Shown here: positions 1 through 8,810 of the stretch, one piece after another
How the letters are laid out: the number at the start of each line of letters is the position of its first letter
How positions within the stretch are numbered: the first letter of the stretch is position 1
Origin: an uncultured Chloroflexia bacterium
Lineage (GTDB): Bacteria > Chloroflexota > Limnocylindria > Limnocylindrales > CSP1-4
Length of the DNA: 64,000 nt
Assembly: GCA_963734535.1 (NCBI GenBank)
Contig: CAVTHS010000010.1
Location: forward strand, 32,001-96,000
Reading direction: 5' to 3'
The notes under the pieces: generated by a model
What the model was told of the DNA's origin: nothing
Seen by the model: only the letters and a program-made list of their open reading frames with translations
Database searches by the model: none
Position numbers and translations under genes: made by a program

Positions 1-834
1 GGTCAGGTAGCCAAGCTCGCTCGCGATGCGGAAGTTCTGCTCCATCGAGCGGCCGATGACGGCGACCTTCCGGTTGAAGCTGGCCGCGGCGTCGAGGACC
101 TGCTGGACGCGGGCGATGTTGCTGGCGAAGGTCGCGACGATCACCCGGCCGTCGAGCGGCTCCATGATCTCGCGGAACGCCTCGCCGACCGTCCGCTCCG
201 ACGGCGTGTAGCCGGGGTTCTCGGCTCGCGTCGAGTCCGAAAGCAGGCAGATCACGCCCTCCTCGCCCAGCTTGGCGAGGATATGGAAGTCCGAGAGCCT
301 GCCGTCCACCGGCGTGTGGTCGAACTTGAAGTCGCCCGTGTGGACGATCGTGCCCACCGGCGTCCGCAGCGCGATCCCCATCGCATCCGGGATCGAGTGC
401 CCGATCCGGAACGGGACGACCGTGAACGGCCCGATGGGGACGACGTCGCCCGGCTCGAGCCCGATCAGCGGGTTGTTGTGGAGCTTGTGCTCCTTGATCT
501 TGTTGCCGAGCAGGCCGCGGGCCAGGGTCGATGCGTAGACCGGGACGCCGGGGAACTCCGGGAGGACGTATGGCAGGGCGCCGACGTGATCCTCGTGGGC
601 GTGGGTGATGAGGAACGCACGGACGTTGGCCCGGTGCTCCTTGAGGTAGGTGATGTCGGGGATGACGAGGTCGATGCCGAACATCTCCTCGTCGGGGAAC
701 ATCAGGCCGCAGTCGATGACGACGATGTCGTCCCCGTACTCGAAGACGTACATGTTCTTGCCGATCTCCCCCACCCCGCCGAGCGGGATGATGCGGAGCG
801 GCGTGTCGTTGGTGGCGGGATTCTGGCTGGTCAT
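1..834 (-). CDS. rnj: Ribonuclease J (N-terminal part; gene runs off window start)
   Basis: Manual translation: MTSQNPATNDTPLRIIPLGGVGEIGKNMYVFEYGDDIVVIDCG...LITHAHEDHVGALP...HSIPD...HTGDFKFD...ATFASNIARVQQ; metallo-beta-lactamase HxHxDH motif and RNase J signatures. Confidence 0.96.
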   Translation of the reverse strand, partial: MTSQNPATNDTPLRIIPLGGVGEIGKNMYVFEYGDDIVVIDCGLMFPDEEMFGIDLVIPDITYLKEHRANVRAFLITHAHEDHVGALPYVLPEFPGVPVYASTLARGLLGNKIKEHKLHNNPLIGLEPGDVVPIGPFTVVPFRIGHSIPDAMGIALRTPVGTIVHTGDFKFDHTPVDGRLSDFHILAKLGEEGVICLLSDSTRAENPGYTPSERTVGEAFREIMEPLDGRVIVATFASNIARVQQVLDAAASFNRKVAVIGRSMEQNFRIASELGYLT

Positions 835-838
835 GGCC

Positions 839-1546
839 TCACGTGAAGAGCGTCAGTTGATCGGTCTCGGATGGATGGGGTGTCGCGTCGGGCGGCTCCT
901 CGGCGACGACTTCAGGTGGCGGTGGGGTTGCCCGAGCGCCGGCCCGGCGCTCGCGGAGCTGGCGCGCCTCGACCAGCGCGGCGGGGATCCGGGCCATGTC
1001 CGCGAAGCTGGTCGCCTCGACGGCCGCCGCCCGCAGCGCGGCCGCCGGATGGTACATGGCGAAGACGCGGGCATTGGCCGCGCCGGTCCCTGGATCGACG
1101 TCGCCGACGCTCCCGTGCGCCCGGCTGATCGTTGTTCCCGGCATGAACCGGCCCATCGAGTGCCGGCCGAGCGTCACCACGAGGGCGGGATCGAGCACCG
1201 CGAGCTGGCGCCGAAGGTACGGCGCGCAGGCCGCGACCTCGTCGGGCTCCGGATCCCGGTTGTCGGGCGGCCGGCACTTCACGACGTTCGTGATGAAGAC
1301 GTCGTCGCGCTGCCAGCCGATCGACCCGAGCAGGCGGACGAGCAGGTCACCCGCCCGCCCGACGAACGGCCGGCCCAGGCGATCCTCGTTCACGCCGGGG
1401 CCCTCGCCGACGAGCACCACCTCGGTCATCGGGTCTCCCTCGCCGGGCACGGCGTTCGTGCGGCCGGCATGGAGCCGGCAGGCAGTGCAGGCCCGAACCT
1501 CCGCCGCGATCGCATCGAGCGCCGCGCGGCGTTCGGGGTCCGTCAC
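839..1546 (-). CDS. udg: Uracil-DNA glycosylase, family 4 (Fe-S type)
   Basis: CTACRL, VGEGPG, PFVGRAG, NVVKCRPPDNR, YHPAAALR motifs; GTG start overlaps asd stop (GTGA). Confidence 0.93.
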   Translation of the reverse strand: MTDPERRAALDAIAAEVRACTACRLHAGRTNAVPGEGDPMTEVVLVGEGPGVNEDRLGRPFVGRAGDLLVRLLGSIGWQRDDVFITNVVKCRPPDNRDPEPDEVAACAPYLRRQLAVLDPALVVTLGRHSMGRFMPGTTISRAHGSVGDVDPGTGAANARVFAMYHPAAALRAAAVEATSFADMARIPAALVEARQLRERRAGARATPPPPEVVAEEPPDATPHPSETDQLTLFT

Positions 1547-2625
1547 GCGGGCGTCTCCGCCTCCGCAGGCCGCGCGCGGCGCGATGCGGGCGCCACCCAA
1601 CCGCGCGCAACCAGCAGCTCGGCCAGCTCCACTGCGTTCGTCGCTGCGCCCTTGCGCACGTTGTCGGAGACGCACCAGAAGGCAAGGCCGCGCCCGTCGG
1701 GGATCGACGGGTCCTGCCGGACGCGACCGACGAAGACCTCGTCCCGGCCGGCCGCCTGGGTGGCGAGCGGGTAGATATGGGAGGCCGGCTCGTCGCGGAC
1801 GACCACGCCCGGCACGTCCGCGAAGAGCGCCCGGGCGGCCGCCGGTGTCACTCGCGCGCGCGTCTCGACGTGGACCGCCTCCGAATGCCCGACGAACACG
1901 GGGATGCGGACCGCCGTGCAGGAGAGGCGAAGGTCCGGCAGGTGGAGGATCTTGCGGCTCTCCGAGACGACCTTCCACTCCTCCTTCGTGTAGCCGTTGT
2001 CGAGGAACGTGTCGATCTCCGGCAGCGCGTTGAACGCGATCGGGTGCGGGTACACAGAGGCTTCCTTGGGAGCGCCCGCCGCGTGCGCGCGGATCTGGGT
2101 CTCCAGCTCCGCGATCGCGTCGGCGCCGGTGCCCGAGACGGCCTGGTAGGTGTCGACCACGACGCGCTCGAGGCCGGGACCGTCGCGCAGCGCCATCAGG
2201 AGGGGGACGAGCTGCATCGTGCTGCAGTTCGGGTTGGCGATGATCCCCTCGTGGGTCGCGAGGTCATCCGGGTTGACCTGGCTCACGACGAGCGGGATCC
2301 CCGCCTCCATCCGCCACGCGCTGGAGTTGTCGATCACCGCGCAGCCGCGTGCGACGGCCTGGGGCGCGAGCTCGCGGGAGACGTCCGCCCCGGCCGAGAA
2401 GAGCGCGATGTCGACGCCCTCGAACGCCTCCGGCGTCGCTTCCATCACCGCGACCGGGCGCCCGGCGACGGGGACCGTCATGCCGGCCGAGCGCCCGGAG
2501 GCGAGGAGCCGGAGCTCCGCCATCGGGAAGGCCCGCTCCAGCAGGACCGAGATCATCGTGCGGCCGACGACGCCGGTGGCGCCGACGACCGCGACCGTGA
2601 GGGGCCGGGGGGTCGTGAGGGACAT
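1543..2625 (-). CDS. asd: Aspartate-semialdehyde dehydrogenase
   Basis: VVGATGVVG, IDNSSAWR, ANPNCST, YQAVSGTG, DNVRKGAATN; alternative leaderless GTG start at 2658. Confidence 0.96.
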   Translation of the reverse strand: MSLTTPRPLTVAVVGATGVVGRTMISVLLERAFPMAELRLLASGRSAGMTVPVAGRPVAVMEATPEAFEGVDIALFSAGADVSRELAPQAVARGCAVIDNSSAWRMEAGIPLVVSQVNPDDLATHEGIIANPNCSTMQLVPLLMALRDGPGLERVVVDTYQAVSGTGADAIAELETQIRAHAAGAPKEASVYPHPIAFNALPEIDTFLDNGYTKEEWKVVSESRKILHLPDLRLSCTAVRIPVFVGHSEAVHVETRARVTPAAARALFADVPGVVVRDEPASHIYPLATQAAGRDEVFVGRVRQDPSIPDGRGLAFWCVSDNVRKGAATNAVELAELLVARGWVAPASRRARPAEAETPA

Positions 2626-2664
2626 GGCTCCGCTGCTCGTGAATGGACTGGCGGGCACGGCGCG

Positions 2665-2670
2665 AGTATA
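2665..2670 (-). promoter_or_regulatory. Candidate -10 element (TATACT) for asd
   Basis: TATACT hexamer stands out in GC-rich DNA; the same TATACTcgcgcc string lies upstream of def. Confidence 0.6.
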
Positions 2671-2742
2671 CCAGCGTGCCCCCGGTCTCCCGGGGGCACG
2701 CGATCGGCGATGCGGGCCGTCCGTGGACGAGCCCGTCGCTGG

Positions 2743-5322
2743 TCAGCTCTTGGCGAGATGCCGCTGCATGGCGGCCTTGCGGGACAGGTTGACCCGGCCC
2801 TGGCGATCGACCTCGGTCACCACGACCATCACCTCGTCACCGACCGAGACCACGTCCTCGACGGAGGGAACGTGATAGTCGGCCAGCTCGCCGATGCGGA
2901 CGAGGCCCTCCTTGCCGGGCAGGATCTCCACGAAAGCGCCGAAGGTCATGAGGCGGGTCACGGTGCCCAGGTACAGGGCGCCGATCTCGACCTCGCGGGT
3001 GAGGGACTCGATCCAGTTGATCGCCTTGCGGGCGTTCTCGCCGGAGACGGCGGCGATCTCGACGGTGCCGTCGTCCTCGACGTTGATCTCCGTGCCCGTC
3101 TCCTCCTGGATCTTCCGGATCATGGAGCCGCCCTTGCCGATGATCTCGCGGATCTTCTCCGGGTTGATCTTGATCTTCGTGATGCGCGGCGCGAAGTCGC
3201 TCATCGTGTCGCGGGCGGTCGGCAGGACTTCGAGCATCTTGTCGAGGATGCTCATCCGCGCGGCGTGGGCCTTCTCGAGCCCCTGCCGGATGATCGCCTC
3301 GCTGATGCCGGTCACCTTGATGTCCATCTGGAGGGCGGTGATCCCATCCCGGGTGCCGGTGACCTTGAAGTCCATGTCCCCGAACGCATCCTCCTTGCCG
3401 AGGATGTCGGTCAGGACCGTGAACGTCCCGTCCGCTTCCGACATGAGGCCCATCGCCGCGCCGGCGACCGGCGCCGTGATCGGGACGCCGGCGTCCATGA
3501 GCGCGAGCGTGGAGCCGCACGTGGACGCCATCGAGGTTGAGCCGTTGGACGTCACGCACTCGGAGACGAGGCGGATGACGTAGGGGAAGTCGTCCGAGCT
3601 GGGGAGCACCGGCAGGAGCGCCCGCTCCGCGAGGTGGCCGTGGCCGATCTCGCGCCGGCCGGGGCCCCGCATCATCTTGTTCTCGCCGGTGCTGTACGGC
3701 GGCATGTTGTAGTGGTGGATGTAGCGCTTCTCGGTCTCCGGGCTGATCGTGTCGATCCGCTGCACGTCGGAGGACGGCCCGAGGGTCGCGATCGTGAGGG
3801 CCTGCGTCTCGCCGCGCGTGAACAGGCCGGAGCCGTGCGCACGCGGGAGGACGCCAACCTCGACCGTGATCGTCCGGAGCTCGTCGACGCCGCGCCCGTC
3901 CATGCGGATCCCCTCGGAGAGGGTCAGCTTCCGGGCAGTCTTCTTGTGGACCAGGCCGAAGAGCGACTTCGAGACGCGGGCCGCTCGGCGGGCCGCCTCG
4001 AGCTTCGCCTTCGCGTCGTCCTTCGACGTGCGGCTGGCACGGATGGAGTCCGCGATCCCATCGGCCAGCGTCGTGAGGCGCCCCGGCAGCTCCGCGGCGA
4101 TCGCGAGGACGAGCGCTGCGGTGGCCTCCGCGTCGGGAAGCGCGCGGTGCGCCTGCTTCAGCTCGATGCCGAAGAAGCGCGAGAGCTCGCCCAGCGTGTA
4201 GCTGGGAAGGTCCGGGTAGCCGTCCCGGGCGAGCGTGAGCGTATCGAGATACGTGCCCGGGCGAACGCGCGTCCCGTCGGCGAGCGCAGCCTCGAGGAAC
4301 GCGATGTCGAACCCGACGGAGTGGCCGACCAGGGTCGCCTCGCCGACGAACGCGAGCGCCTGCCTGGCGGCGTCCGCGGGGCTGGGTGCACCGGCGACGT
4401 CCTTGTCCGTGATCCCGTGCATCTGGTTGCCGAAGATCGATCGGCCCGGGTTGACGAACGTGGACCAGCGGTCGGCGACCTTGCCCTTCTTGATCCGGAC
4501 CGCGGCGATCTCGACCAGGTCGGCCATCTCGGCGTTCGTGCCCGTCGTCTCGACATCAAGCACGACGAGCTCGGCGCCGGCCTTGACCTTCGCGGCGAAG
4601 TCCAGCACGGAGCCGGTGCCGGCCTCGAGGAACGGGATCCGCTTCGTCTTGCCGACGGCCTCCTGGAGCTGGAGCTGGATGTCGACGAGCGGCTGGAGGG
4701 CGCGGTGACCGAACAGGATGGCCTCGGCCATCACCGACTCGGACAGGATCTTGGCGCCCGCCTCGACCATCATGATCGCGTCGCGAGTGCCCGAGACGAT
4801 GAGGTCGAGGTCCGACTCGGCCAGCTCGGACATCGTGGGATTGATCACGAACTCGCCGTCGATCCGGCCGATGCGCACGGCTCCGATCGGGCCGAGGAAC
4901 GGGATCTCGCTGATGGTCAGCGCGGCGGACGCGGCGATGGTGCCGAGGACGTCCGGGTTGTTCTCCTGGTCGGTGGAGAGGACGGTGAGGACGACCTGGA
5001 CGTCGTCCTTGTAGCCCTCGGGGAAGAGCGGCCGGATGGGCCGGTCGGTCAGCCGCGCCGCCAGGATGGCGGCCTCCGAGGGCCGCGATTCGCGCTTGAT
5101 GAAGCCGCCGGGGATCTTGCCGGCCGCATACATCCGCTCCTCGAAGTCCACCGTGAGCGGGAAGAAGTCCAGGCCCGGGCGGGGCTCGGACCGGTTGGCG
5201 GTGCCGAGCAGGACCGTGTCGCCGTACGTGACGGTGACGGAACCACCGGCCAGGCGGGCGAGCTTGCCCGTCTCGATGGTGAGGGGGCGTCCGCCGAACT
5301 CGACGGAAAAGGTGAGGGACAC
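2743..5322 (-). CDS. pnp: Polyribonucleotide nucleotidyltransferase (PNPase) with inserted DEDDh exonuclease domain
   Basis: FFPLTVDFEERMYAAGKIPGGFIKRE, RAHGSGLFTRGETQ, RREIGHG, SNGSTSMAS, EDAFGDMDFKV, KH (IIGKGG) and S1 domains; GTG start after AGAAAGG RBS; follows rpsO. Confidence 0.97.
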   Translation of the reverse strand: MSLTFSVEFGGRPLTIETGKLARLAGGSVTVTYGDTVLLGTANRSEPRPGLDFFPLTVDFEERMYAAGKIPGGFIKRESRPSEAAILAARLTDRPIRPLFPEGYKDDVQVVLTVLSTDQENNPDVLGTIAASAALTISEIPFLGPIGAVRIGRIDGEFVINPTMSELAESDLDLIVSGTRDAIMMVEAGAKILSESVMAEAILFGHRALQPLVDIQLQLQEAVGKTKRIPFLEAGTGSVLDFAAKVKAGAELVVLDVETTGTNAEMADLVEIAAVRIKKGKVADRWSTFVNPGRSIFGNQMHGITDKDVAGAPSPADAARQALAFVGEATLVGHSVGFDIAFLEAALADGTRVRPGTYLDTLTLARDGYPDLPSYTLGELSRFFGIELKQAHRALPDAEATAALVLAIAAELPGRLTTLADGIADSIRASRTSKDDAKAKLEAARRAARVSKSLFGLVHKKTARKLTLSEGIRMDGRGVDELRTITVEVGVLPRAHGSGLFTRGETQALTIATLGPSSDVQRIDTISPETEKRYIHHYNMPPYSTGENKMMRGPGRREIGHGHLAERALLPVLPSSDDFPYVIRLVSECVTSNGSTSMASTCGSTLALMDAGVPITAPVAGAAMGLMSEADGTFTVLTDILGKEDAFGDMDFKVTGTRDGITALQMDIKVTGISEAIIRQGLEKAHAARMSILDKMLEVLPTARDTMSDFAPRITKIKINPEKIREIIGKGGSMIRKIQEETGTEINVEDDGTVEIAAVSGENARKAINWIESLTREVEIGALYLGTVTRLMTFGAFVEILPGKEGLVRIGELADYHVPSVEDVVSVGDEVMVVVTEVDRQGRVNLSRKAAMQRHLAKS
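4090..4575 (-). other. DEDDh/DnaQ-like 3'-5' exonuclease domain inside pnp
   Basis: ExoI LDVETTG, HGITD, ExoII GHSVGFD, LDTLTLAR, ExoIII HRALPDA, all in frame with PNPase. Confidence 0.92.
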
Positions 5323-5425
5323 GAGCGTTCCTTTCTCGCTCGCGTCGGGGATGGACCGCTGCCGGCGTTTCGCGCCGACCTCCGGATGCATGAGGCCGGG
5401 GCGTTACCCCGGTCTCAGCGGGTGC

Positions 5426-5695
5426 TCAGCGGCGCAGGCCGAGCCGTGCGATGACGGCGCGGTAGCGCGGCGCATCCTTCTTCACGAGGTACGCGAGAAG
5501 GCGCCGGCGCTGGCCGACCAGCTTGAGGAGGCCGCGGCGGGAGTGGTTGTCCTTGGGATACTGCCTGAGATGCCCCGTCAGATCCTTGACCCGCTCCGTG
5601 AGGAGCGCAATCTGGACCTCGGGGGATCCGGTATCGCCTTCCCTTGTCGCAAAGTCAGCGACGATCCGGTCCTTGGTTTCCCGCACGAGCGGCAC
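5426..5695 (-). CDS. rpsO: 30S ribosomal protein S15
   Basis: [13 protein letters not shown]...[23 protein letters not shown]; GTG start after GGAGGA. Confidence 0.97.
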
Positions 5696-5754
5696 TCGGT
5701 CCTCCGACACGAAAACTTGTACTAACCGTTCTTGCAAACGTGCGTACCGTAGCA
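5696..5754 (-). promoter_or_regulatory. rpsO promoter (extended -10 TGcTACGGT) and AT-rich 5' leader, possible S15 autoregulatory site
   Basis: TGnTAnnnT at 5746-5754; low-GC leader; rpsO leaders are commonly regulated by S15. Confidence 0.5.
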
Positions 5755-5801
5755 GGGGCGGGCGGTTCCTGCAAACGCGGTCGGCCCCGACCCGCCCACC
5801 T

Positions 5802-6671
5802 TCAGGCCCATCGGACGAACGATACCCGCAGCCGACCGCCCGTCGGGGTCCCGTTCCTGGCGTCGACCCGGAGCGTTCCATCCGTGGACACGCGCACGAC
5901 CGCCCGGCTCGGGCGCGCCCGAGCGCTGCCGGGCGCGATCGCCGCCTCGAGCGTGGCCGCGTACGGCCCCGGCGGTGGGAGCGCGACCGGGACCTCGAAC
6001 GCCAGCGTCGCGCCCCGGCCGTCCATCGACCGATCGGCGATCTGGCCGGTGACCGCGACCCGCCGTCCAAGAAGCTCGCGGGCCGTCGCGAGGTCGCCCG
6101 TGGCGATCGCGGAACGGATCTCCGTGCTGCGCACCTGCCGCCCCCGGAGCTCGAATGGCGGGACGACCACGACCGAGAACCCGTCGCGATCGCCGAGCGC
6201 GGCGAGCGCCTGGGGCGTCCCGCGCCGTTCGTGGCCGAACGCCGCGTCCGGCGTCATCAGGAAGCCCGCCAGGCCGGTCCGCGACTCGATCGACGCGACG
6301 AAGGCGTCGTAGGGCGTCCGGCGGAGGGCTTCGTCGAAATGCTGAACGATTGTCACCTCGACGCCCGCCCGCGCCAGCCGGACCAGGCGCTCGACCGGAT
6401 CGCACAGGAGCGGCGGCGCGGCGCCCGCCATGATCTCGTCGGGGTGGTGATCGAACGTCAGCACGGCCGGGACGGCGCCCATGCGACCGGCGGCCCGGCG
6501 GAGCTCTCGCAGCAGGTAGGCATGCCCGCGGTGCAGCCCGTCGAAGACGCCCACGACGACCAGCAGCGGTCCGTGGCCCGGAAGGAGCGTGCTGACGCCG
6601 TGCAGCACCGACGATGGCCCGGTCGCGCGTCGGGCGACGGCCACCGGCAGCGAGGGAGCCTGCTCAGCCAC
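5802..6671 (-). CDS. ribF: FAD synthetase (FMN adenylyltransferase) with degenerate riboflavin kinase domain
   Basis: [32 protein letters not shown]; position truB-ribF-rpsO; C-terminal part lacks the PTAN motif; start approximate. Confidence 0.85.
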
Positions 6672-7794
6672 GAGGCGCGGCGGCGGCGCGCGGCACGAGC
6701 ACCTTGTCGGGCACGAGGCGGCCGCCGGCCCGCCGGGCGATCGCCGCCAGCGACCCGTCCTCGAGCACGAGCCGAACCCGGTCCGCACCCGCCGACGAGC
6801 CCGCAGCGGCCGAGGACATCGCGCCTGCCACCGGGCCGCCCGCCGGGATCCCGGACGGCGCCGGGAGCCGGCCGCCCTCCCCGATCCAGCCGCCGTGCGC
6901 GACCACGACGACCTCGTCCGGGCGGAGCGTGACGGCGGGAAGGTCGTCGAGGCCGGTGCCGACCGGGATGAGCAGGTCCGCGAAGCGCCCGCTTGCCGCG
7001 GCCTCGCGGGCCACGTCGAGGCTGATCGCGTCGTCGAGCGTGAACGGCCCCGCCGCGGTGCGGCGGAGCGCCCCGAGATACGCCGCGCTGCCGACCGCAG
7101 TCCCGAGATCGCGCGCGAGCGCCCGGACATAGGTGCCCGCGGAGCAGGCCACGTCGATGACCGCGAGCGGACGGTCCGGATCCGTCCCGTCCCACCGCTC
7201 CAGGGAGAGGGCGTGGAAGGTCGTCGCGCGAGCCGGCAGCTCCGGTGAGTGACCGGCCCTGGCAAGGGCGTACGCACGCCGCCCGCCGATCTTGCGCGCC
7301 GAGAACGCCGGCGGAAGCTGCAGGTGCGTCCCGAGGAAGCCTGCCAGGGCGGCCTCGACGACCTCCTGCGACGGGGCCGGCCCCTCGCTCGGCGTCAGCT
7401 CTCCCTCGAGGTCGTCGGTCGTCGACGACGCGCCGAAGCAGACGGTCGCCCGGTACGCCTTCCTGGCGCCGAGATGGAACTCCACGACCCGGGTCCCAAG
7501 GCCCAGGTAGAGCGGGAGGACTCCGGACGCGAACGGATCGAGGGTCCCGCCGTGGCCGATTCGCTTCGTCCCGGCGAGACGCCGCACGAGCGCGACGACG
7601 TCATGCGACGTCGGGCCGACCGGCTTGTCGACCACGAGGATGCCGTCGAGCCCGGCGTCGATCCGGCGCGGCCGCCGCTCACGCACAGGGTCGGCCGTCT
7701 GCGCCGGGTTCCCAGCGGCGGCGGGCAGCTCGTCCGTCATGGGCTCCTCGTCCGCGACTGGCTCCTCGTCCGTCCTGGACCCCCCGTCGCTCAT
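6664..7794 (-). CDS. truB: tRNA pseudouridine(55) synthase
   Basis: VDKPVGPTSHDVV, GHGGTLDPFASGVL, CSAGTYVRALARDLG; ATG overlaps nrnA stop. Confidence 0.96.
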   Translation of the reverse strand: MSDGGSRTDEEPVADEEPMTDELPAAAGNPAQTADPVRERRPRRIDAGLDGILVVDKPVGPTSHDVVALVRRLAGTKRIGHGGTLDPFASGVLPLYLGLGTRVVEFHLGARKAYRATVCFGASSTTDDLEGELTPSEGPAPSQEVVEAALAGFLGTHLQLPPAFSARKIGGRRAYALARAGHSPELPARATTFHALSLERWDGTDPDRPLAVIDVACSAGTYVRALARDLGTAVGSAAYLGALRRTAAGPFTLDDAISLDVAREAAASGRFADLLIPVGTGLDDLPAVTLRPDEVVVVAHGGWIGEGGRLPAPSGIPAGGPVAGAMSSAAAGSSAGADRVRLVLEDGSLAAIARRAGGRLVPDKVLVPRAAAAPRG

Positions 7795-8810
7795 CTCGCC
7801 ACGGCCCGGGCGAAGCGGATTGCCACCGGGAGGACGACGGCCGCGGCGTCGGCGAGCGGGAGGTCGACCGACGCGCCCGCGGCCCGGGCATGCCCGCCGC
7901 CCCCCCACGTTCCACACAGCGCAGTGGCGTCCACGCCGCCGGGCTTCGTCCGCACGGAGACCCGCGTCGCGTTGTCCTTCTCCTTGAGCAGCAACGCCAC
8001 CTCGGCCGTCTCCGACTGGGCGAGCAGGTCGATGATCCCCTCGGAGTGCTCCGAGCCCGCCCCGGTCGCGACCAGGTCGGCCAGCTCCATCGTCGACGCG
8101 ATCACGAGCCCGTCGGCGTGGGACTGGAGCCGCCCCAGGACGCGTCCGAAGAGCGCGAGCTGGGCATCCGGCTTCGTGCGGTAGAGACGCCGGCTGATCT
8201 CGGAGAGTGGCGCCCCCGCCTCCACGAGCGCGGCCGAGACCTGGAGGGTGCGGGGCGTCGCGTTCGGGTGGGCGAAGGTGGCCGTGTCCATCACGATCCC
8301 GGCCATCAGCGCCGCGGCGAGCCGTCCCTTCCCCAGCGTCAGGGGCACGCCGAGCCGGGTGGCGAGCAGCGCGACCATCTCGCAGGTTGCCGCAGCGCTC
8401 GCGTCGATCCAGACGAGGTCACCGGACGCGGCGTTGCTGGCGTGATGGTCGATCGTGAGGACCGGCGTGGCGGCAAACAGCGCGGCGTTCCGGTCGCGGA
8501 TCGCGCCCACACGCGACAGGTCGCCGCAGTCGCACAGGACCACCAGGTCATAGGCGGCGTCCGGCTCCGGGTCCGTCCGGACCGCGTCGGTGCCCTCGAG
8601 GAACCGGTACAGCTCCGGCACCGCATCCGACGCGGCGACGGTCGCCCGCCCGCCGCGGGCGTCGACGATGAGGCCGATGGCGATGGCGGCGCCCAGCGCG
8701 TCCGCGTCCGGGCTCTCGTGGCCGATGGCGAGCACGCGGCGTGCCCCGCGCAGGCGCTCTACCACTGCGTCTGGAACCGCCGTCGCGAGCGGTCGCAGGT
8801 CGATGCGCAT
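7791..8810 (-). CDS. nrnA: DHH/DHHA1 phosphoesterase (NrnA-like nanoRNase/pAp phosphatase)
   Basis: HESPDADALG, IDHH, MDTATF, GGGGHARAAG; usual rbfA-nrnA-truB position. Confidence 0.9.
   Translation of the reverse strand: MRIDLRPLATAVPDAVVERLRGARRVLAIGHESPDADALGAAIAIGLIVDARGGRATVAASDAVPELYRFLEGTDAVRTDPEPDAAYDLVVLCDCGDLSRVGAIRDRNAALFAATPVLTIDHHASNAASGDLVWIDASAAATCEMVALLATRLGVPLTLGKGRLAAALMAGIVMDTATFAHPNATPRTLQVSAALVEAGAPLSEISRRLYRTKPDAQLALFGRVLGRLQSHADGLVIASTMELADLVATGAGSEHSEGIIDLLAQSETAEVALLLKEKDNATRVSVRTKPGGVDATALCGTWGGGGHARAAGASVDLPLADAAAVVLPVAIRFARAVAR

Follow-up and report, generated by a model that had tools for sequence, protein, structure and literature searches.

The pnp gene of an uncultured soil bacterium of the phylum Chloroflexota encodes a polynucleotide phosphorylase (PNPase) that carries a complete DEDDh-type 3'-5' exonuclease domain between its two RNase PH domains. 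The gene lies on the minus strand of a 64,000-nucleotide stretch of contig CAVTHS010000010.1, which is called the window below; the bacterium's own assembly is labelled G000. Judged by its TIGR03591 score, domains, site motifs and locus, the protein is a member of the PNPase family, and the insert is a DEDDh member of PF00929 by score, motifs and fold. We tentatively propose, with a little less than even confidence, that the protein is a single-chain PNPase whose helical linker domain has been remodelled to house an active, hydrolytic DEDDh 3'-5' exonuclease, and that ends left unfinished by phosphorolysis would be hydrolysed there. PNPase is among the most studied RNA-decay enzymes and, to our knowledge, its plan of PH1, helical domain, PH2, KH and S1 has been regarded as fixed in bacterial and mitochondrial enzymes alike. 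A search of the full-text literature, with subscription-only papers and supplements outside its scope, found no description of a PNPase with a DEDD domain, in agreement with a first-pass annotation of the window, which knew of no characterised example.

Domain architecture and catalytic residues

Residue numbers refer to P0001, the 882-residue frame, unless the 859-residue protein is named; the latter numbers are those of P0001 minus 23. The gene and its domains are as follows.

2743..5322, minus strand: pnp, 859 codons plus stop, with a probable GTG start at 5322
4630..5322, minus strand: RNase PH domain 1 with RNase_PH_C (PF01138, PF03725), residues 24-254; aligns with canonical PNPases up to GKxK(R)
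4567..4629, minus strand: linker between PH1 and the exonuclease, residues 255-275, with one helix; missing from canonical sister PNPases in the alignment
4111..4566, minus strand: DEDDh 3'-5' exonuclease domain (PF00929), residues 276-427; from Pfam, motifs and fold
3928..4110, minus strand: post-exonuclease helices, residues 428-488; from the AlphaFold2 (AF2) model and the alignment to canonical forms
3232..3927, minus strand: RNase PH domain 2, residues 489-720 (best Pfam stretch 504-637), with RREIGHG, SNGSTSMAS and DAFGDMD
3007..3180, minus strand: KH domain, residues 738-795 (KH_1, PF00013, E 2.5e-12)
2776..2991, minus strand: S1 domain, residues 801-872 (PF00575, E 7.1e-18)

Pfam finds RNase_PH (PF01138) twice, at E 5.1e-54, together with RNase_PH_C (PF03725), and places RNase_T (PF00929) at residues 276-427 with 94.6 bits, the cut-off being 24 (E 1.2e-26; 97.6 bits in a whole-genome profile search). 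The order RNase_PH, RNase_T, RNase_PH, KH and S1 that the first-pass annotation had expected is thus recovered in full; its placement of the exonuclease stands, with the bounds it gave, nucleotides 4090-4575 or so, drawn in by Pfam to 4111..4566. The PNPase equivalog model of NCBIfam, TIGR03591, scores 937.7 bits against a cut-off of 525.05 and matches in two stretches parted by the insert, for which the best NCBIfam models are PRK07883 ('DEDD exonuclease domain-containing protein'), DinG and the PolC exonuclease.

The insert-bearing PNPases belong to three families, here f1, f2 and f4, and the sister families f3 and f5 belong to the same Chloroflexota class. Between the PH cores the insert module spans about 229 residues, against about 70 in the sister families. 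The PH1-PH2 linker is therefore not the short, all-helical one of the family, which makes the protein a variant of PNPase and is no reason to exclude it. In other respects it resembles the canonical enzymes of known structure (4aid/4aim of C. crescentus, 7ogl/3gcm of E. coli and 9qh3 of P. aeruginosa), with which it shares the PH cores, KH, S1, the locus and the site motifs, but these have a helical domain of about 70 residues where the present protein has a module with a complete DEDDh exonuclease. None of the solved PNPases among the fold matches listed has a DEDDh-type domain. The AF2 model (mean pLDDT 80.1, pTM 0.73; pLDDT about 85-95 in the exonuclease part) superimposes on C. crescentus PNPase (4aid_A) with Z 47.6 and a root-mean-square deviation (rmsd) of 3.0 over 530 aligned residues at 48% identity, and Foldseek matches it to E. 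coli PNPase (7ogl_A) at E 9.6e-68.

In the model, the linker helix comprises residues 237-247 of the 859-residue protein, and the exonuclease is followed by helices at 394-429, 434-448 and 452-470 in the same numbering. The ExoIII helix extends into a helix of 36 residues, and two further helices rejoin PH2. These post-exonuclease helices are probably a remnant of the PNPase helical domain, or a replacement for it. In excerpts of PMC2723993 (Nurmohamed et al. 2009), that domain is located on the side of the torus away from S1/KH and is described as part of a pore that gives access to the active site. The insert sits in the domain that, in the solved PNPases, faces away from KH/S1 and lines the side pore to the PH2 site, which is the position that the first-pass annotation had assigned to it. 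Three copies of the insert module (A1 residues 205-470) were co-folded as a probe of self-association, with a median score of 0.29 against a mark of 0.42, which speaks neither for nor against it.

The motifs of both sites, as quoted in the first-pass annotation, are all present in a single copy each: DVETTG at 279, HSVGFD at 357 and HRALPD at 415 for the exonuclease, and RREIGHG at 579, SNGSTSMAS at 615 and DAFGDMD at 668 for PH2. The DEDDh residues are D279, E281, D362, H415 and D420, which correspond to D256, E258, D339, H392 and D397 of the 859-residue protein. Conservation was read from an alignment of 49 rows (46 insert-bearing sequences and three canonical PNPases). All five DEDDh residues, metal-binding and general-base, are invariant in the 46 insert-bearing sequences from the three families, and R556, R557, S595, S597, D645, D651 and K653 (859-residue numbering), residues of the PH2 phosphorolytic site, are invariant in all 49. 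Meanwhile the insert module (query residues 230-500) has drifted to 39-45% identity between f1 and f4, and the whole protein to 62-65%.

Ratios of nonsynonymous to synonymous substitution (dN/dS) were obtained by the Nei-Gojobori method for six within-genus pairs; the f1-to-f4 pair L001-L012 was left out, its linker ratios being above 1 and its dS probably saturated. The exonuclease gave 0.087-0.263, PH1 0.061-0.192, PH2 0.033-0.155 and KH-S1 0.040-0.140, with 0.126-0.597 for the linker and 0.112-0.397 for the post-exonuclease helices. The exonuclease ratios are of a similar range, and the domain is therefore under selection of about the same strength as that on the catalytic cores. Both catalytic centres are intact and under purifying selection.

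These data bear on the proposal that the domain is catalytically silent, in which case it would plug the helical-domain pore in a structural or regulatory capacity, or offer partners a place to dock, and its conservation would reflect binding and not hydrolysis. The helical domain that it replaces is thought, in excerpts of PMC2723993, to gate the entry of both nucleoside diphosphates and phosphate. Moreover, inactive DEDD folds do exist, the RNase H-like domain of ESRP1 being one that appears in the fold list (Z 16.0). Nevertheless, a pseudo-nuclease would not be expected to keep all of its metal-binding and general-base residues, five in number, unchanged in 46 of 46 sequences from three families while the linker and the helices around it diverge, nor is it easily squared with the insert being the sole PF00929 domain found in the G000 assembly. 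We regard a silent domain as very improbable.

Distribution of the insert

The protein was matched in all 41 genomes searched, namely G000, 24 others of its genus and 16 of a second family of the order; most of the matches are full-length, insert included, at 68-99% identity. The first-pass annotation had suggested looking for the architecture in related genomes and for reads across both junctions; the architecture was found there, and assembled contigs cross both junctions. A protein-database search with residues 230-500 returned 1715 proteins at E ≤ 1e-3 among 8000 scored, and PF00929 occurs together with PF01138 in all 120 homologues listed. In database pipelines these homologues go under one of two names, 'polyribonucleotide nucleotidyltransferase' and 'DNA polymerase III epsilon subunit family exonuclease'.

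Two draws of 401 genomes each set the limits of the distribution. Within the class, a 271-residue module with its flanks is matched end to end in 137 of 137 f1, 16 of 16 f2 and 143 of 153 f4 genomes, and full-length genes were confirmed in G043, G077, G049 and G080 (f4) and in G025 and G028 (f2). The sister families give weak module matches alone, at E 1e-15 to 1e-30 (f3 85/92, f5 2/2), and in the three such genomes examined, G041, G044 and G052, these fall on a different protein, while the PNPase is canonical and about 740 residues long. Across the phylum, the module reaches E ≤ 1e-35 in 44 genomes, which are G000, 23 of 23 f1, four of four f2 and 16 of 16 f4; none of the 357 remaining genomes reaches that threshold. 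The class tallies include genomes flagged as unpublished (G102, G122, G126, G131, G140, G146, G157, G184, G191, G263, G274, G319, G335 and G402); the class pattern is independent of them, and no named example or locus comes from them. An f3 genome, G283 (contamination 6%), holds an f1-type PNPase fragment at C380:182-991 (E 1.9e-110) beside its own DinG; this f1-like fragment is probably contamination of the bin.

Logan contigs of four runs, one of which (X1) may be the source sample, were compared with window positions 3700-4900. The junctions are bridged by X1 record 1 (3733-4731, five differences) and X2 records 27 and 30, and contigs from RNA libraries cross both junctions in X15 (records 10 and 15) and in X17, from another study (records 18, 21 and 22). 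The bridging contigs, from this gene or those of its relatives, come from permafrost DNA runs and from ice and wetland RNA libraries, and the enzyme is therefore probably common in nature. One further X1 contig (depth 6.5) joins position 3846 to 4834 and skips 987 bases, marked 'between: not known'. It probably stems from a relative that matches the conserved PH patches only, and probably not from an insert-free allele.

It is appropriate at this point to consider whether the insert might be an assembly chimera or a mobile insertion, either intein-like or transferred recently into one genome. Its presence in 41 of 41 relatives, its confinement to three families among the 44 positive genomes of the phylum draw, and bridging contigs from four runs, other studies and RNA libraries among them, all stand against this. 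So does the gene itself. The frame is a single continuous one, and the insert has a G+C content of 0.69-0.72 against 0.64-0.72 over the rest of the gene, so that no composition shift is seen, as the first-pass annotation had stated. Neither an intein nor a Hint domain was detected in the pnp product by Pfam at E ≤ 0.01, which accords with the lack of intein-like termini noted earlier. A self-splicing insertion is ruled out, the insert being a nuclease fold flanked by helices. An assembly artefact is excluded, and the chance of a chimera or mobile insertion taken together is negligible.

Type and origin of the exonuclease

By sequence, the solved structures closest to the insert are the exonuclease of PolC (9qpc, E 1.9e-24; 2p1j, E 4.7e-19) and that of S. 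aureus DinG (8zef, E 1.4e-15), followed by epsilon (about 3e-9) and RNase T (4.5e-6). The fold matches of residues 247-414 of the model (859-residue numbering) give the same order, with PolC at Z 22.0 (rmsd 2.1, 180 aligned), S. aureus DinG at Z 21.9, epsilon at Z 20.6, ExoX at Z 18.4, RNase T at Z 17.7 and REXO2 at Z 13.8. The fold is of the RNase H-like alpha/beta type, and aligns to epsilon, DinG and PolC over 159-180 residues at rmsd 1.8-2.2. When the domain alone was compared with 1.84 billion representative proteins, every match with more than about 50% identity was a PNPase-insert protein or a fragment of one. Matches of 40-48% identity, which form the next tier, include DinG-like exonuclease-helicases, PolC, FAN1/VRR-NUC fusions, BRCT-linked tandem exonucleases and UvrC-like proteins; here the architectures come from Pfam for 25 of the 150 matches, the remainder being labelled by similarity to those. 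In P0139, P0188, P0136, P0147, P0148, P0154 and P0157, PF00929 occurs two or three times in tandem: P0139 combines three copies with a UvrB/UvrC motif, several others have two and a BRCT domain, and P0188 is a PolC with two exonuclease domains within its PHP domain.

The insert domain thus sits on the DNA-metabolism side of the DEDDh superfamily and is of the PolC/DinG/epsilon type. RNase T and oligoribonuclease, which are obligate homodimers, are hydrolytic 3'-5' exoribonucleases that finish the leftovers of other RNases. The insert is not close to these two, which the first-pass annotation had named with epsilon as DEDDh enzymes; its nearest relatives are PolC, DinG, epsilon and other DNA-repair fusions. 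The insert shares the DEDDh superfamily with RNase T and Orn/REXO2, which are distant from it by sequence as well as by fold, and membership of the RNase T/oligoribonuclease group is ruled out by the E values given above (RNase T 4.5e-6, PolC 1.9e-24). Neither RNase T nor Orn models are among the best 25 of the 66 NCBIfam rows matched. Membership of the DinG exonuclease-helicase family (TIGR01407) is likewise ruled out, as no helicase domain (DEAD_2, Helicase_C_2) is present in the protein. With the exonucleases of PolC (9qpc, 2p1j) and DinG (S. aureus 8zef/9ii8; B. subtilis), its best matches, the insert shares the fold and the motifs, and in PolC the exonuclease is also nested within another domain (PHP). 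The host differs, however: it is an RNA phosphorylase and not a DNA polymerase or helicase, and the inserts form a clade of their own.

The occurrence of DinG in the class is instructive. In G000, a whole-genome search with PF00929 returns exactly one domain, the PNPase insert, and the same is true of G043 and G077 (f4). In the canonical genomes G041 and G044 (f3) and G052 (f5), the strongest PF00929 domain is at the N-terminus of an open reading frame (ORF) of about 890 residues, which, when read through in G041 and G044, holds a DinG-type helicase; in G052 the helicase part was matched. The DinG-type ORF accounts for all PF00929 matches in G044 and G052, and G041 has a second, sub-threshold one. 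In the class draw, the DinG helicase part is present in 84 of 92 f3 and two of two f5 genomes, against none of 137 f1, none of 16 f2 and one of 153 f4 (34% identity), and it was not detected in G000. Similarly, PF13307 was not found in G000, G007, G025 or G043 and is present in the control G044. The fused exonuclease-DinG occurs in three of five outgroup genomes of other classes, so that the fusion is ancestral. In the outgroup G427, at C1:1783367-1784725, the DinG helicase part lacks an in-frame exonuclease and separate exonuclease-like ORFs lie elsewhere, so that the fusion varies within the phylum.

That the insert is the sole DEDDh domain is not a general rule. By hand count, the sole PF00929 match is in the PNPase in about 124 of 170 f1 and 47 of 52 f4 genomes, and a further match occurs in about a quarter of the f1 genomes and in six of nine f2 genomes; some of the kin of the same genus are among those with an extra match, and the rule was rejected. 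The extra DEDDh matches in G001, G004, G011, G025 and G210 are short and weak, with 24-58 bits to PF00929. The one read through is a stand-alone DEDDh protein of about 180 residues (G001, L054 1300..2037, plus strand), for which no counterpart was found in the G000 assembly, 89.9% complete.

A PNPase tree of 27 rows, from which the insert columns were removed and in which five canonical outgroups were included, unites the insert-bearing PNPases in one clade (SH-aLRT 100) that is sister to the class's canonical PNPases (99). According to the tree, there was a single acquisition of the insert, by the ancestor of the three families. Since there is a single insert clade with a canonical sister, the insert was gained once and DinG lost once, both on the same branch; this pairing is a single evolutionary coincidence and not a statistical association. 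In the exonuclease tree, the PNPase inserts again form one clade (96-97), and the DinG domains of the class lie within a separate DinG clade (99) that leaves the inserts outside. Direct descent of the insert from the resident DinG is therefore not supported by the topology, although it is not rejected by the approximately unbiased (AU) test: forcing the inserts together with the class's DinG domains costs a log-likelihood difference of 10.0 (p-AU 0.254, 47-row set).

It is tempting to read this pattern as a takeover of DinG function, in which the nucleic-acid-binding ring of PNPase has replaced the helicase as the carrier of the exonuclease work of DinG on DNA 3' ends and R-loops. If this were so, the fused enzyme would belong to DNA repair or R-loop processing as much as to RNA decay. 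Several of the observations made above fit. The insert and the DinG helicase are complementary across the 401-genome class sample, as are the PF13307 results for the four insert-bearing genomes and the control; the canonical genomes bear their strongest PF00929 domain on the DinG-type ORF, and in G000, G043 and G077 the insert is the sole one. The ancestral fusion, the mapping of the insert gain to the branch on which DinG disappears, and the DinG-like proteins among the closest non-PNPase relatives point the same way. In addition, excerpts of PMC12525004 name PNPase as another enzyme that might act on the 3' tails processed by DinG, and the abstract of PMC5379764 implicates it in recombination and repair. 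On the other hand, one gain and one loss on one branch amount to a single coincidence, the class's DinG domains fall in a clade that excludes the inserts, the gene remains in the translation and RNA context of rpsO-pnp, and no helicase would be available to feed the site. We consider a takeover, the main rival of the two-chemistry nuclease, rather unlikely.

What is new here, then, is the single origin of the insert, the combination of a canonical PNPase with a DinG-borne DEDDh domain in the sister families, the helicase not being found in the insert families, and the insert being the sole PF00929 domain of G000. The reciprocal loss of DinG provides a concrete and testable link between PNPase and the processing of DNA or R-loops.

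Proposed function and gene neighbourhood

We return to the two-chemistry nuclease, our tentative preference. According to this proposal, the PNPase trimer would use KH/S1 and the central channel to capture single-stranded 3' ends and would degrade them by phosphorolysis in the ring, and the three hydrolytic sites on the far face would take those 3' ends that phosphorolysis cannot finish. Candidate substrates for hydrolysis would be the short limit oligonucleotides that come out of the ring, ends at which the PH2 site stalls and, under scarcity of phosphate, ends of any kind. Because the domain is of the DNA-proofreading type, the DEDDh site may be expected to cut 3' ends of single-stranded DNA too. 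Its near relative, the exonuclease of S. aureus DinG, cuts both single-stranded DNA and RNA, as described in excerpts of PMC12525004; in the same excerpts, B. subtilis DinG prefers single-stranded DNA, cleaves the RNA of hybrids and clears R-loops.

What other hydrolytic capacity does the cell have? The RNase II/R domain (PF00773) was found neither in G000 nor in 28 other f1, f2 and f4 genomes, so that no other processive hydrolytic 3' exoribonuclease of the RNase II/R family was found in them. It is tempting to see in this the cause of the insert, but the idea was rejected: PF00773 is present in just 24 of the 251 phylum genomes searched, whereas 11 of 14 control genomes have it, and it was not found in the canonical G044 (f3) and G052 (f5) either. 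As the domain is rare across the phylum and the sister families do without the insert, a lack of RNase R does not explain it.

This last point tells against the two-chemistry nuclease, and others must be set beside it. The exonucleases most closely related to the domain serve DNA metabolism and are not RNases. B. subtilis DinG hardly cuts free single-stranded RNA, according to excerpts of PMC12525004. A DHH-family gene in the same cluster, with a weak likeness to NrnA (79.5 bits against a cut-off of 350), could already finish nano-RNAs. The finishing of nano-RNAs that the first-pass annotation had put forward receives no specific support. Finally, the RNA-library contigs that cross both junctions are no proof of transcription.

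A comparison with the eukaryotic exosome is instructive. Both combine a PH ring, an S1/KH cap and hydrolytic 3'-5' nucleases, and fold matches of Z 19.7-21.5 link the PH2 part of the model to exosome subunits. In the exosome, however, the ring has no catalytic activity and hydrolysis is left to separate subunits, whereas here the phosphorolytic sites are kept and a DEDDh domain is nested in each protomer. Of the exosome nucleases, the DEDD enzyme Rrp6 lies on the side of the S1/KH cap and Rrp44 at the opposite end, where the channel exits. Of the parallel drawn by the first-pass annotation, then, the loose analogy stands, with Rrp44 a closer counterpart than Rrp6. The parallel is best regarded as one of working principle and not as homology of arrangement.

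These considerations allow a further reading, which joins the loss of DinG to the exosome analogy. A proofreading-type exonuclease may have been built into the PNPase ring as DinG was lost, and function thus relocated, giving a single polypeptide akin to the exosome with Rrp44 that would tie RNA decay directly to the removal of R-loops and of 3' ends in DNA. We hold this to be unlikely. Were it true, PNPase would be the carrier of the main DnaQ-type nuclease, in G000 the only one, and strands threaded through an S1/KH-capped PH ring would meet a hydrolytic nuclease on the far face.

For the two-chemistry nuclease, as for its alternatives, the interest lies in a second hydrolytic site per protomer throughout a lineage, which would be a natural test of why phosphorolytic and hydrolytic 3' exonucleases are paired. 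The insert-bearing PNPase would also test the purpose of the helical domain and its side pore, and the rise of arrangements in which, as in the exosome, a ring is joined to a hydrolytic nuclease.

As to the gene itself, the open frame spans 2743..5391 on the minus strand and comprises 882 residues when counted from its first ATG, at 5391. The start is more likely the GTG at 5322: the homologues are 859 residues long in 76 of the 120 proteins listed, a Shine-Dalgarno-like GAAAGGA precedes this GTG, and at four loci of the same genus the open frame is just 860 codons. The same evidence bears out the start at 5322 given in the first-pass annotation, as the S15 gene directly upstream bears out the usual rpsO-pnp locus. 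The S15 gene, the DHH gene, asd, the uracil-DNA glycosylase (UDG) gene and RNase J were assigned by profile scan, and ribF, truB and rbfA were named from their translations. An Rfam scan of window positions 2500-6000 yielded no family that reached its gathering score. The neighbouring features are as follows.

5426..5710, minus strand: rpsO (ribosomal protein S15), directly upstream of pnp; TIGR00952, 121.4 bits against a cut-off of 63.65
7791..8810, minus strand: DHH-family ORF with weak NrnA likeness, between rbfA and truB
1..834, 842..1978 and 1546..2658, minus strand: asd, family-4 UDG and the 5' part of RNase J (downstream genes)

Farther upstream of pnp, past rpsO, are ribF, truB, the NrnA-like DHH gene and rbfA. 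It is possible, on sequence grounds, that the DHH ORF is a candidate nano-RNase within the pnp gene cluster (NrnA being a bifunctional oligoribonuclease/pAp phosphatase). Downstream of pnp lie asd, the family-4 UDG gene and the 5' part of the RNase J gene. In the UDG ORF, the UDG domain comprises residues 155-334, and a long Arg/Pro-rich N-terminal stretch overlaps asd in another frame; the true start of this gene is therefore probably internal.

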